NCBI GenBank assembly: GCA_031370785.1
Contig: JANMQY010000114.1
Location: forward strand, 1-64,000
Direction: 5' to 3'
From: Candidatus Eiseniibacteriota bacterium
Lineage (GTDB): Bacteria > Eisenbacteria > RBG-16-71-46
Length of the DNA: 64,000 bases
In this document: piece after piece, positions 21,001 to 24,000 of the stretch
How the letters are laid out: each line of letters starts with the position of its first letter
How positions within the stretch are numbered: position 1 is the first letter of the stretch
Position numbers: made by a program

Positions 21001-24000
21001 GCTTCGCGCCATGAACCAGCAGGTCATTGGCCCCGTGGTAGACCAGATCGGCCGCGGCGTCCGCGACCCGTCCCGCGATGAGCGCCAGCTGGAGCTTGGT
21101 GCCAACGCCGTCCATGGTCGCGGCCACCAGCTGCTGCTTGCCACCCGGCCACTCCATTACGCCCGCGAATCCGCGCGGAAGCGGGCGCACGCGATCCGAC
21201 CAGGTCTGCTGCACTGTGACGAGGAGCGCGTGCTTGAGCGCATCCGAGCGCGTCACGTCCACCCCCGCGTCGCGGTAGCGCATCAGCCGCGCGCGCGCCG
21301 GGGATTGAGGCGGAGCTGAAGAAGATCCTCGCTGCTGGGACTGGGGATGATCGGGAAGTCACCGGCACGATGCAGGCGGACCAGGCATTCGACCACGCGC
21401 GTATCGAATTGCGTTCCCGCGCCGCGACTCAGCTCGTTGAGCGCGGCCTGGACCGAGAGCGCGCGCCGATACGGGCGATCCGAGGTCATGGCGTCGAACG
21501 CGTCGCACACGTTGAGCACGCGGGCACCGAGCGGCACGTCCTCCGAGCCGAGACCGAACGGATAGCCCTGCCCGTCGGGGCGCTCGTGATGGGTGCGCAC
21601 GATCTCGGCCGAGCGCCTGAGCGCGCGCACTTTCGCCACGATCTCGGCCCCGGCCGCGGGATGCGCGCGCAACGTCCGCTGCTCCTCGTGCGAGAGCGAG
21701 CCTGGCTTCTGCAGGATGTGCTGATGCTGCGGCCCGATCTTGCCCAGGTCGTGCACCAGCGCAGCGTATTCGATCTCCTCGATCTCGCGCTCGGACACGT
21801 GCAGGCCGCGGGCGAGGCGTTGCGAGTATTGCGAGACGCGCACCGAGTGGTGCCGGGTGTAGGGATCGACCGCTTCGAGCACTTCGGAGAGCGCACGGAC
21901 GAAGTCCTTCAAGTCGGAGCGGATTTCCAGGTAGAGGCGGAACGAGTGGCGCGCGACCAGGAACGGCAGCCCGCACAACGCGAGCGTCCACGCACCCGCG
22001 TGCTGATAGGTCACGGTCACGAGCGCGCCGAGCCCGATGAACGAGAGGTGATGCATCAGGCTGTCCTGAAAGTTGCGCTGCCAGATCCGCCACGGATCGG
22101 GACCGGCGGTGAGCCCGATCACGAGCGTGACCAGCAGCGTGTTGCACACGAACAGCGCGATCCCGCACACCAGGAGAGGGATCAGATCGCCCGGGAAGCG
22201 CAGCCGGCCGACCTCGCCGCCAGCAGCGTGGAACGCGGCGGCGGCCACGAAATAACCGAGCGTGAAGATCGCGGCATTGAATACCACGCGCACCGGGGGC
22301 TTGCGTAGCATCAGCCCCTGAACGGTGAGCGTCGAGACCACGTCGAGCGCGGCGACGTACACCGGGCCGAGCAGGACCAGGAGCGGGAGATCGATCGCGG
22401 CGCTGGCGGTCGCATAGCCGCCGCCCGGAAGAGCGACCGGGCTCGCCTCGATGAACATCATCAGCCCGAGCGCGACGACCAGCAGCAGGGGCTGCGGCGC
22501 GGGTGGCAGCGAGCGGAGCCCGAAGGCGAGCGCGGTCACCGCCGCGAGCACCACAGCGACGTAGTAGAGCGTGAACAGGCGGGGGTGTCTGGCGTCCCGG
22601 AATAGAGTCACGTTCGCGACCGGGGGACCGAGTAGGCGCTGGAAGGTGGGCGCAGAAGAAAGGAAACCGTCACCGGATTTGGAGCACAGCCGACCAGTTC
22701 GGGTCGCGCTATGCCTGCGTCAGATTGCTACCAGCCGGCTTTGCCGAAGAAATTGATGAGGTCGTCGAGGAACTCCACGAAGCCCACCTCCTTTACTTAA
22801 GAGATTCTGCGGGGATTCTTCTCTATGCCCGTCAGGTGGGTCCGCTTCGCTATTTTTATCCTCGTCTCGCTCCGCTCTCCTTGGCCGGTGACGGTTTCAA
22901 GATATATTCCGTTGGCTCTTTGGTTCGCAAACCACCCACCACCCGATTGAGAGCGGAGAGCGTCGCGAGTACCACGGCCTGCTGCGCATCCTGCTCTACC
23001 GCGCAGCTTCCTACCAGCAGTTTTTCCTGCCGGTGGGCAAGCAACGTCAGGCCAATCACCACAGCGTCCTGACGTCCTATCCGCACGAACGCGATTTCAG
23101 AGACTCCGAGTGCCACGTCCTCATCGAGGAATTCCTGCACCGCAGCCAGAGTCGCCGCTGCGATCAGACGATGCGCGCCGTCGCGTGTACTCCAGCCGGA
23201 GGCGCTGCCCATTCTCGGCGCACCCTTCCAGCGCAGCTCGACCTGGGCCTGCGTGCGGGGGCCAGCGACATAGAGATTGACGCTGCCGAATCGAATGCGG
23301 TCGTCGGTTGCCGGCTCGGGCGTGGCCTCCGTGGCAGGCGGGGCGACTTCGACGATCCGAGGCTGCGGCGCCGGCTGATCTGCCTGCGTAAAGGCCACCG
23401 ACACAATTCGATGGTCAATTTGTTTGTTGAGTCGGTTGAAGAGAAGAGTCTGGACGTCTCGTACAATCTGCTTCGGCGGGCGCGCGGAGGTCGAAAGGAT
23501 GTGGATCGTTCGAATCACTTCGCCGTCGGCTTCGATGCGGACATCGTCCACGTCGCGCAACGACCGGATCGCTGCTTCCGCCCTGGCGGACCATGAGACT
23601 CGCGTGTTGTCGACAGCCACGGCCCACACTCCCCTCTTCGTCACCAATCTTCTCAAACCGCTGAAACGCGGAGATACCGTAACACAGTGGGCGCGGATCT
23701 GGCCATTCTCAGATACTTCGGCCGCTAAAACATGGGCTCGAGGTCAAAGTGTACCATTCGGTGCAGAACCTCGACGCGCTGCGCGATCTCGCCCGTCCCC
23801 GTGTCCGCCAAGCGCATCGGGCTGAAGCCTTCGATCGCGACCGAGGCCATCGCCGCCCCGCAGGCGAGTGCCTGCCGGAGCGCGTTGCCATCGGTGCGGC
23901 CGCAGCGCGCCAGCCACCCGATGAAGCCGCCCGCGAACGAATCGCCGGCACCGGTCGGATCGGTCAACGCCTCGACCGGGAATGCCGGAGTGATGAATCG

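Follow-up and report, generated by a model that had tools for sequence, protein, structure and literature searches.

MASE9-HD-GYP phosphodiesterases (PF20972), such as T. maritima TM1467 and S. venezuelae HdgA, combine a multi-pass membrane sensor with a c-di-GMP output, and for MASE9, whose ligand they describe as unknown, Galperin and Chou (10.1101/2021.11.05.467447) suggest binding inside the membrane. In the accessible part of the HdgA paper, mutants of S. venezuelae hdgA had no developmental phenotype, and the authors suspected that activating signals were missing (Al-Bassam et al., PMC6205966). The word 'peptide' is absent from the main text of the preprint that defines MASE9 (10.1101/2021.11.05.467447), and in the accessible parts of these accounts we found no micro-gene, RNA structure, stand-alone MASE9 gene or ZU5 partner. 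For MAIN domains, cleavage between F and S has been demonstrated, after which both halves stay associated; according to the accessible text, the described MAIN proteins are large and C-terminally anchored, their N-terminal part is released, and signalling by a C-terminal fragment is not known (Brogan and Rudner, 10.64898/2026.05.12.724683). Adhesion GPCRs (GAIN-Stachel-7TM), whose likeness to the system described below is one of logic alone, keep a short peptide concealed in a self-cleaving beta-sandwich next to a multi-pass membrane receptor. In the small quorum-sensing precursors AgrD, ComX and Phr, the leader varies, a short core is conserved, and the sensor is encoded alongside.

Here we describe a locus from the window (the whole stretch of 64,000 nucleotides of Candidatus Eiseniibacteriota DNA that was analysed) in which a micro-gene precedes a gene for a protein with the MASE9 and HD-GYP domain pair, g01500. 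Like the AgrD, ComX and Phr genes, the micro-gene lies beside a sensor gene and encodes a putative small precursor whose leader varies and whose core is short; unlike them, it has no adjoining prenyltransferase, RRNPP regulator or exporter, and the output is c-di-GMP. It falls outside the Agr family, whose peptides have a ring-forming Cys/Ser and a charged C-terminal tail: here the core itself forms the C-terminus.

The micro-gene and its neighbours

Judged from its sequence, the unannotated 16-codon micro-gene is a real gene (Table 1). The preliminary description of this DNA had proposed an uncalled 16-aa peptide with a strong Shine-Dalgarno sequence (SD), which our analysis confirmed (codons GTG GAG TTC ... 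GGC AAA GCC GGC TGG TAG). It had also called the peptide hydrophobic, which is too simple, the window peptide being rather amphipathic and acidic (GRAVY 0.29, net charge -2), with a hydrophobic moment of 2.1 over residues 1-11 (amphipathic helix) and no signal-peptide shape.

Table 1. Positions of the features of the locus in the window
Feature	Position	Strand	Remark
purM-like (AIRS) flanking gene	20267..21283	minus	
g01500, MASE9-HD-GYP protein, 442 aa	21283..22611	minus	residues 1-225 model as ECF S-component fold
Outer helix 3' arm CCGGTGACGGTTTC	22663..22676	minus	a pyrimidine-rich tract comes after it
Micro-ORF, 16 aa, (M)EFLDDLINFFGKAGW	22728..22778	minus	amphipathic acidic leader and conserved C-terminal core
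Shine-Dalgarno AGGAGGT of micro-ORF	22786..22792	minus	7 nt spacer to GTG start
Anti-SD GACCCACCT	22834..22842	minus	pairs with SD region; covaries with SD in relatives
AGCGAAGCG motif, second copy	22843..22851	minus	counts in relatives and controls in text
g01501, conserved hypothetical protein, 254 aa	22856..23620	minus	weak likeness to LeuA allosteric domain
AGCGGAGCG motif, first copy	22868..22876	minus	within last codons of g01501
Outer helix 5' arm GAAACCGTCACCGG, 14 bp	22885..22898	minus	within 3' end of g01501
pfkB-family kinase, upstream flanking gene	23725..24678	minus	

The product of g01500 is a MASE9-HD-GYP protein. Both matches reported earlier were reproduced: HD_5 at E 4.5e-34 and MASE9 at E 9e-5, the latter scoring 22.9 bits in hmmscan, under the cut-off of 24.3, and 25 bits in the genome search, over it. 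The catalytic motifs are intact (HHSVRV 254, HDLGK 287, HHERPDG 341, GYP 349, DAFDAM 370, RPYR 379), and c-di-GMP hydrolysis is predicted. Its MASE9 domain models as an ECF S-component fold: the model is all-helical (pLDDT 92), the top 15 hits of its structural search all belong to ECF S-components or their BtuM relative (Z 14.2 to 8.5), and RibU aligns over 159 residues (Z 14.0, rmsd 2.8). Asn112 and Asn157, near the S-component pocket, are invariant. The modelled likeness extends over RibU, NikM/CbiM, FolT and BioY (Z 10-14); MASE9 differs in being fused to signalling domains or standing alone, and the ligand proposed below is a peptide rather than a vitamin or metal. The fold common to MASE9 and these S-components shows no function by itself. 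The second MASE9 of the genome belongs to a kinase and has no peptide before it; the genes ahead of it, named from their translations, we take to be DUF1611-like and epimerase-like.

The assignment of g01501 to the LeuA regulatory domain is tentative: LeuA_dimer matches 6 of 28 homologues and the automatic Atlas name agrees, but these matches are weak (best E 4.5e-4) and the window protein itself has none. A PDB sequence search with g01501 gave no match under E 0.06, and a search for it on plasmids found no match.

The peptide family in relatives

Matches were present in 115 genomes; 90 loci were fetched, and the 88 Ca. Eisenbacteria loci with a located g01501 stop were counted, of which 58 have an SD and the peptide (L084 and L085, with no C-terminal match, were left out). 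Some tallies of matches include the unpublished genome G015, from which no locus or claim is drawn. These loci are kin, not independent, so such counts overstate. MASE9 lies downstream in 55 of the 58 peptide loci versus 1 of the 30 peptide-less loci, where purM stands directly behind g01501 in 24. Further, all 17 family-f7 loci carry the MASE9-HD-GYP orthologue with neither g01501 nor an upstream peptide and with a pfkB-family kinase gene directly ahead of it; L050 likewise has the orthologue without an upstream peptide, and in L069 the peptide is followed by purM. The 12 loci of family f13 have g01501 and no peptide, and MASE9 was found there in 0 of 12 by protein and 0 of 5 by profile, with one unrelated-looking ZU5 match across the 12 genomes. 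The peptide therefore tracks the MASE9-HD-GYP gene rather than g01501, and the fixed three-part module proposed previously is contradicted by the 30 of 88 loci with g01501 but no peptide and by family f7. The cassette and its mRNA structure recur in Natranaerobius thermophilus (Bacillota), where the Trp peptide has 28 aa.

Among the 30 best-scoring family loci, window included, all have an SD and a peptide ending in [GTS]-[KR]-A-[GS]-W (that of L010 was placed by hand), whereas the strict G-[KR]-A-G-W ending occurs in 22; the earlier pattern, G-[KR]-x-G-W, was thus slightly too strict. Across all loci, lengths range from 8 to 50 aa; conservation is confined to the C-terminal [GST]-[KR]-A-G-W, with GHAWW, GRNGW and GKSGWM as core variants and residues beyond the Trp in 9 peptide loci. 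Leaders are longer and hydrophobic in distant families, and some families have GG before the core, the window peptide a single G. The shortest form, MKMGKAGW (8 aa, L087), lacks a hydrophobic stretch, and five loci (L032, L034, L035, L039, L044) carry the core in 2-3 tandem copies; repeated cores are a trait of processed precursors. In the 45 endings that finish with GW and a stop, Trp is present in 45 of 45, while Lys/Arg is encoded by six codons, Ala by four, and all three stop codons are used; within the final five codons, the leading three have an entropy of 1.4-1.7 bits at their third position versus 0.3-1.0 at positions 1 and 2. Such synonymous variation at conserved core residues argues for constraint at the protein level. 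A c-di-GMP riboswitch as the source of GGCAAA...GACGCA was considered and rejected, given this third-position variation, which favours protein, and the lack of an Rfam match.

A leader-plus-core layout with repeated cores is also what a RiPP precursor would have, for instance one like that of streptide, a peptide with a Lys-Trp cross-link, and the long-range mRNA pairing described below resembles that of type I toxin mRNAs. Either identity appears most improbable to us: a radical-SAM CxxxCxxC motif was found in 0 of 58 peptide loci (long frames, 1.4-5.3 kb each), so that no adjacent maturase motif marks these loci as radical-SAM RiPPs, the neighbours are pfkB and purM, and the gene is single-copy, acidic and vertically inherited between housekeeping genes.

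An mRNA structure around the micro-gene

A covarying mRNA structure, made of an outer helix, an anti-SD and AGCGAAGCG, wraps the micro-gene, as read from aligned relatives. The repeats noted before the peptide were located as two copies in the window (AGCGAAGCG and AGCGGAGCG), with about 50 nt from AGCGAAGCG to the SD. In 57 of 58 peptide loci the 190 nt upstream contain AGCG[AGT]AGC[GC]; none of 29 peptide-less and none of 17 family-f7 loci has it there, and the genome background is 0.011 per 190 nt. Two elements not in the preliminary description, the outer helix and the anti-SD pairing, were also observed; the outer helix has at least 9 perfect pairs in 38 of 58 peptide loci, with compensatory changes, and the anti-SD duplex reaches p<=0.05 in 32 of 57. 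Because folding of the whole region is unexceptional in the window (z -1.07; Natranaerobius z -2.04), the RNA claim is built on pairing across relatives and not on energy. An Rfam covariance search near the micro-gene, c-di-GMP riboswitches included, gave 4 matches (E 2-6), all far under the gathering score, in agreement with the earlier report of no Rfam match, and no sigma-70 promoter or intrinsic terminator was found on the minus strand of 22500-23800. In RNA libraries X1 and X2, contigs of 17 and 30 kb span the stretch and may be DNA; the libraries are 3 runs of 1 study on a relative 90-99% alike, were used as assembled contigs, and cover gaps in X3 are uninformative.

These pairings, the near-constant motif, the Trp at the last codon and the lack of an evident SD ahead of g01500 would suit a cis-acting leader peptide, in which the ribosome, by passing over the Trp codon or stalling on it, would switch the mRNA structure and thereby set expression of the HD-GYP gene, g01501 perhaps binding the AGCGAAGCG repeats. 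We regard this as quite unlikely, since 9 peptide loci have residues after the Trp and the same tip ends exported ZU5 proteins (see below) whose genes stand before or after their MASE9 gene and have the RNA motif in 2 of 51 upstream regions. The RNA structure and a role of the peptide as MASE9 ligand can coexist.

Putative exported proteins with the same tip

The Trp tip is also found on ZU5/GAIN-fold proteins, predicted to be exported, beside MASE9 genes, which is new here. These proteins are of about 200 aa and carry the tip 10-16 residues after an H-F-S motif; examples are the carrier at G000 C47:9222-9880 and those of the L115 and L120 types. Among the best 150 ZU5 representatives (129-392 aa), 132 end in [KR][AS]GW, a count that is partly circular as the search profile contains the tip, 147 have an HFS-like motif within the last 40 aa (137 of these 147 end 10-16 aa after HF), and 107 have a lipobox-like N-terminus. 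Structural models indicate that the long carriers have a GAIN/ZU5-like beta-sandwich with H-F-S before the last strand: Foldseek with a carrier model returned ankyrin ZU5 (E 3.7e-4), CD97 GAIN (E 8e-4) and BAI3 GAIN (E 1.6e-3), with TM near 0.4 across the full length of the query (218 aa), and Pfam ZU5 matched weakly in 1 of 9 carriers. F207 and S208 are invariant and H206 is present in 11 of 12, in the turn between strands 199-204 and 209-214. By analogy, we predict that the carriers self-cleave at H-F|S. They share with MAIN domains the ZU5/GAIN-like fold and the H-F-S at this turn, and differ from MAIN proteins in size, in a mostly lipobox-bearing N-terminus and in a predicted free Trp-tipped tail of 10-16 aa beside a membrane sensor; the sizes and short ends of the best 150 relatives do not match the MAIN architecture of a large ectodomain before and a surface anchor after the domain.

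With a MASE9-blind DNA pattern (HFS-x-Y-x-x-G-[KR]-A-G-W-stop), 57 stretches were retrieved, and MASE9 lay within 2.5 kb in 37 of them (34 of 54 once overlaps were merged). Matches titled 'Bacteroidota' or 'Dormiibacterota' were rejected as a sign of spread beyond the phylum, as the two tested drew the window's own phylum sample. MASE9 adjoins 20 of 53 ZU5 loci with a Trp tail versus 0 of 17 tail-less ones; the tip-bearing proteins adjoin both stand-alone and kinase MASE9 genes.

Many of these neighbours are stand-alone MASE9 proteins, roughly 250-290 aa long and lacking an output domain, and genomes have up to six ZU5 matches, most without an adjoining MASE9. Both facts would fit a tag at the C-terminus that serves sorting to the cell envelope or modification there, with MASE9-like proteins as anchor or handler and not as sensors. 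That function seems very unlikely, given that MASE9 in g01500, L159, L162, L252 and L257 lies in proteins of 440-500 aa with HD-GYP or kinase-type tails and that a gene of 16 or 8 aa carries no cargo.

Proposed ligand of MASE9

The tip recurs on exported proteins encoded beside the same kind of sensor, and so it is probably the signal of that sensor. The preliminary description had offered the peptide as ligand or partner of MASE9, a proposal that stays inferential and gains from the tandem cores, the 8-aa form, the tip on ZU5 proteins and the ECF S-component fold. We lean, by somewhat more than an even chance, towards the Trp-terminal core as the MASE9 ligand, which would be delivered either in a micro-precursor or, tethered, at the end of a larger protein. 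Against it stand the family-f7 loci and L050 without a peptide, L069 with the peptide but purM next to it, the second MASE9 without a peptide, the net negative charge of the window peptide and its lack of a signal-peptide shape, and the 33 of 53 Trp-tailed ZU5 loci, this genome's included, with no MASE9 in flanks of 1.5-3 kb (some cut by contig ends). Translation would start from a strong SD held in the anti-SD helix inside the outer helix, a gate suggested by base pairing; the amphipathic leader would take the peptide to the membrane, where the core may be exposed or cut free outside; the Trp-terminal core would enter the pocket of the S-component-like fold, as the model suggests, and the phosphodiesterase activity predicted for g01500 from its motifs would change. 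Other MASE9 proteins (stand-alone or histidine kinase) would receive the core as a 10-16-residue tail after ZU5 cleavage at H-F|S. Searches of five genomes for an exporter or processing enzyme found DUF5317 in none and AgrB in none, although the AgrB positive control matched once only and under the cut-off; C39 matched in two, as 201-253-aa frames only. In the control searches, Thermus thermophilus and Thermotoga maritima gave matches to MASE9 and DUF5317.

The missing processing enzymes, together with the amphipathic helix, the longer hydrophobic leaders of distant families and the direct adjacency of peptide and MASE9-HD-GYP gene, would fit an intact small protein, neither cut nor diffusible, that stays bound to the membrane and serves MASE9-HD-GYP as a stable accessory subunit or chaperone, as MgrB and SafA work on PhoQ. 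We consider such a subunit unlikely, because the 8-aa form has no hydrophobic stretch, the cores occur in tandem, the identical tip ends soluble ZU5 proteins and the f7 orthologues manage without the peptide. Returning to the core as ligand, a more specific and tentative version, which we think possible although less than probable, is a split signalling of adhesion-GPCR kind, in which an exported ZU5/GAIN-fold protein would cut itself at H-F|S and keep its Trp tail until force or unfolding frees it, the freed tail would activate MASE9 as a separate receptor coupled to c-di-GMP enzymes or kinases, and the 16-aa gene would be an agonist-only form dosed by the mRNA switch. Unlike in adhesion GPCRs, receptor and carrier come from different genes, the receptor fold is that of an ECF S-component, and a free micro-gene encodes the peptide as well; we claim no homology between the receptors.

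No earlier description of the peptide or of a ZU5-MASE9 link was found in the literature, in a search outside which most subscription papers lay; the supplements of the MASE9 preprint (alignment Fig. S5) and of the MAIN preprint (15,000-protein table) might list them. The finding names a concrete, cheaply synthesised candidate ligand for the orphan sensor domain of phosphodiesterases, cyclases and kinases, and provides a test case for a question that the MAIN preprint raises: can a microbial GAIN-like domain signal through its C-terminal fragment? If the proposal is true, a vitamin-transporter fold would have been reused as a peptide receptor, and both Bacillota and an uncultured phylum would have c-di-GMP under peptide control.

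Coding evidence and composition of the peptide

We found a match to g01501, the gene upstream of the micro-ORF, in 115 of the 151 genomes of the phylum sample. Among 90 loci taken (the 30 best and 60 mostly from distant families), the stop codon could be placed in 88, and 58 of these had, behind an SD, a short ORF with a terminal or near-terminal Trp (L010 placed by hand); the other 30 had no peptide, including L045, where the contig end cuts a peptide-like frame. The 45 peptides with a GW-stop end had Trp in 45/45, a basic residue encoded by AAG, AAA, CGC, CGT, AGA or CGG, the Ala of the core ([GST]-[KR]-A-G-W) encoded by all four codons, and the stop codons TAA (28), TAG (16) and TGA (1). 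Because codon use varies around constant residues, the micro-ORF is under protein-level selection and is coding, and the uncalled ORF with SD of the preliminary description is real. It reads (M)EFLDDLINFFGKAGW, 16 codons.

The tip was the constant part in the 58 peptide loci, while the N-terminus varied freely, both in sequence and in length (8-50 aa). In the window's family the leader had an acidic, amphipathic character (net -2, hydrophobic moment 2.1); it was more hydrophobic in other families and absent from L087, where the whole peptide was MKMGKAGW. In five loci the tip was repeated within one peptide: three times in L034 (...DGKGGW-DLQPT-DGKGGW-DRT-DGKAGW), L032, L035 and L044 (GGHAWW), and twice in L039. 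Processed peptide precursors are built in this way, with a short core repeated after a single leader; that the peptide serves intact, as an accessory subunit, we consider unlikely.

Features in the window and in related sequences (window positions unless a contig or locus is named)
Feature	Position	Strand	Remarks
g01501	23620-22856	minus	254 aa
Outer helix, 5' arm	22898-22885	minus	GAAACCGTCACCGG; in last codons of g01501
Micro-ORF	22778-22728	minus	AAAGGAGGTGGGCTTC then GTG GAG TTC CTC GAC GAC CTC ATC AAT TTC TTC GGC AAA GCC GGC TGG TAG
Predicted local hairpin	22714-22684	minus	between peptide stop and 3' arm
Outer helix, 3' arm	22676-22663	minus	CCGGTGACGGTTTC; exact complement of GAAACCGTCACCGG
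g01500	22611-21283	minus	442 aa
Intact exported ZU5/GAIN-fold gene, same genome	C47:9222-~9880 (L133:1723-2379)	minus	end HFSTYGVQGKAGW; no MASE9 adjoining
Second ZU5 gene, same genome and tip	C124:~68700-69080	plus	frameshifted: pseudogene or assembly error
Second MASE9, same genome, fused to histidine kinase	L091 (C83:19594-23076)		no peptide before it
Natranaerobius MASE9-HD-GYP and DUF5317 genes	L272:2747-4545 (NZ_CP144220.1)		each annotated in two pieces

Gene neighbourhood

MASE9 was downstream in 55/58 peptide loci vs 1/30 peptide-less loci (L050); the three exceptions were L039, at a contig end, L069, with purM next, and L068, whose HD domain follows a divergent membrane part. In 24 of the 30 peptide-less loci, the g01501 stop and purM were no more than 110 nt apart. 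Family f7 had the MASE9-HD-GYP orthologue in 32/32 genomes, a g01501 match in 0/32, and no peptide before the MASE9-HD-GYP gene, which succeeds pfkB, in 17/17 loci fetched. The peptide occurs where a locus has both g01501 and MASE9-HD-GYP. Since the three also occur apart (peptide-less loci, f7), they are no fixed unit, and the "fixed three-part module" first described does not hold. In the f7 gap between pfkB and MASE9-HD-GYP (L093-L109), a recurring TGGCAC...TTGC(G) element stands instead of g01501 and peptide, which we take to resemble a sigma-54 promoter. No Pfam or NCBIfam family matched g01501, and its homologues were titled "hypothetical protein", several of them from Ca. Eisenbacteria.

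Outside the phylum, one case was examined, Natranaerobius thermophilus (Bacillota; plasmid record), and there a Trp peptide near MASE9, as raised by the preliminary description for other phyla, was present. The homologue of g01501 there (hhalign 99.8%, E 1.9e-30) was followed by GAGCGAAGCG, an SD and an unlisted ORF MNKVVLILVTLLGVVLAGGASFTWGGGG, and the cassette also held MASE9/HD-GYP and DUF5317 genes, whose two-piece annotation suggests frameshifts or sequence errors. DUF5317 was not found in 5/5 genomes of the window's phylum, its own included, with two control genomes matched.

mRNA structure

Minimum-energy and centroid structures both formed the outer helix and paired an anti-SD GACCCACCT with the SD, with the folding of the whole region no better than that of shuffles (z -1.07). 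The structure covaries across relatives. The longest perfect complement between the sequences before and after the ORF was at least 9 bp in 38/58 loci and beat 95% of shuffles in 36, and the helix was found in 56/58 when anchored on its core, which is then paired by construction; one column read A-U 24, G-C 16, G-U 10 and U-A 3, and other columns switched likewise. The 5' arm was kept even where it lay in UTR, not coding frame (L015, L021, L022, L028, L029, L089), the Natranaerobius helix paired TAACAGGGAC with GTCCCTGTTA, and the anti-SD duplex was better than shuffles in 32/57 loci. The motif AGCG[AGT]AGC[GC] occurred in 57/58 peptide loci vs 0/29 and 0/17 controls, the control windows being mostly coding DNA; g01501 as its binder is a guess. 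No Rfam family fitted the region, as first reported. Such structure would suit a purely cis-acting leader, a reading that we hold improbable.

Where the window has its predicted hairpin, relatives had hairpins of unrelated sequence. Contigs of a close relative covered the ORF in 3/3 RNA runs (one study); in X3, one 331-nt contig (22673-23004) ended within the 3' arm at a depth of 122 vs 2-4 for four other pieces. As neither a ranking of genes nor RNA ends can be taken from contig depth, and as DNA may underlie X1 and X2, this RNA cover is a hint only.

The same tip on ZU5/GAIN-fold proteins

Inspecting DNA upstream of weaker MASE9 matches, we met MASE9 genes that stand alone (about 250-290 aa, Pfam E 1e-3 to 1e-10). 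The proteins encoded before them have 150-330 aa and end in H-F-S-x-Y-...-G-[KR]-A-G-W. The tip recurs on exported ZU5/GAIN-fold proteins. A profile of 12 carriers matched 6154 representatives with E values up to 0.001; among the best 150 of these, 147 had an HFS-like motif within the last 40 residues, 132 a [KR][AS]GW end and 107 a lipobox-like pattern (loose expression), counts that are partly circular. The C47 gene is preceded by what we take to be an M48-peptidase-like gene and followed by what we take to be a cytochrome c / alternative-complex-III-like cluster. In its protein model (pLDDT >90 for most of 94-214) the HFS motif lay at the turn that leads into the last strand, and the model matched ankyrin ZU5 and GAIN domains from CD97 and BAI3. 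Microbial GAIN-like (MAIN) domains were shown to cut HFS between its F and S, the fragments remaining associated, and according to the authors the C-terminal fragment has no known signalling role (10.64898/2026.05.12.724683).

A DNA pattern of the tail alone found 57 stretches in 185,579 genomes, most titled Ca. Eisenbacteria, 37 of them with MASE9 within 2.5 kb. The MASE9 neighbourhood depends on the tail: among 70 ZU5 loci, MASE9 adjoined 20/53 with a Trp tail vs 0/17 without (Fisher p 0.002, overstated because kin are not independent). Three of the 20 had other tips (GTADW twice, GTGGWD). Counting against the tie, 33/53 Trp-tailed genes had no MASE9 neighbour within the stretch fetched, and the second MASE9 of the window's genome, the kinase fusion, had no peptide before it. 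Family f13 had no peptide, MASE9 in 0/12 and 0/5 (one search without positive control) and a single long ZU5-like match among 12 genomes. To the reading of the tip as a sorting tag we give a slim chance.

In L120, L123, L215, L228 and L230 a stand-alone MASE9 gene lay between two Trp-tailed ZU5 genes. Separate small ZU5/HFS proteins with Trp-less tails (e.g. HFSIYRITLFE) had no MASE9 neighbour (L241-L255). An M48-family metalloprotease gene was often directly upstream of the ZU5-tail gene (L114, L115, L118, L119, L124, L133; Pfam E 5.9e-37 in L115), and is a candidate processing enzyme.

MASE9 and the proposed ligand

The MASE9 (E 9e-5) and HD_5 (E 4.5e-34) matches of g01500 were reproduced. 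The model of residues 1-225 (pLDDT 92) matched ECF S-components, best NikM-type 4m5c (Z 14.2, rmsd 3.4, 187 aligned) and RibU (Z 14.0, rmsd 2.8, 159 aligned), and the series ran on to rank 15 (Z 8.5), far above unrelated entries; Foldseek also put the same family at the top, though with E values of 0.01 or above. The pocket in which S-components take up small ligands lies within the membrane. This agrees with a proposal by Galperin and Chou, in which an unknown ligand of MASE9 is bound intramembranously (10.1101/2021.11.05.467447). Asn112 and Asn157 were invariant across 48 fused and stand-alone MASE9 domains. The second MASE9, fused to a kinase and lying directly behind what we take to be DUF1611-like and dipeptide-epimerase-like genes, may sense another peptide-derived ligand.

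The system fails or lacks the features that define Agr, radical-SAM RiPPs and the MAIN architectures described so far. A RiPP or toxin is the least probable reading. The literature searched, incomplete in coverage, held no description of the peptide-MASE9 system. Its component parts (MASE9-HD-GYP, MAIN/ZU5, S-component fold) are already known, and peptide-to-membrane-sensor signalling is of a known kind. The weakest step is the route of an acidic 16-mer without signal peptide to the outer face: AgrB and DUF5317 were not found in the five genomes searched, and C39 matches were short frames only. Further, we infer export, cleavage, binding and an effect on c-di-GMP, and give somewhat better than even chances to the reading in which the micro-ORF peptide would be a processed or exposed ligand of MASE9, altering c-di-GMP.
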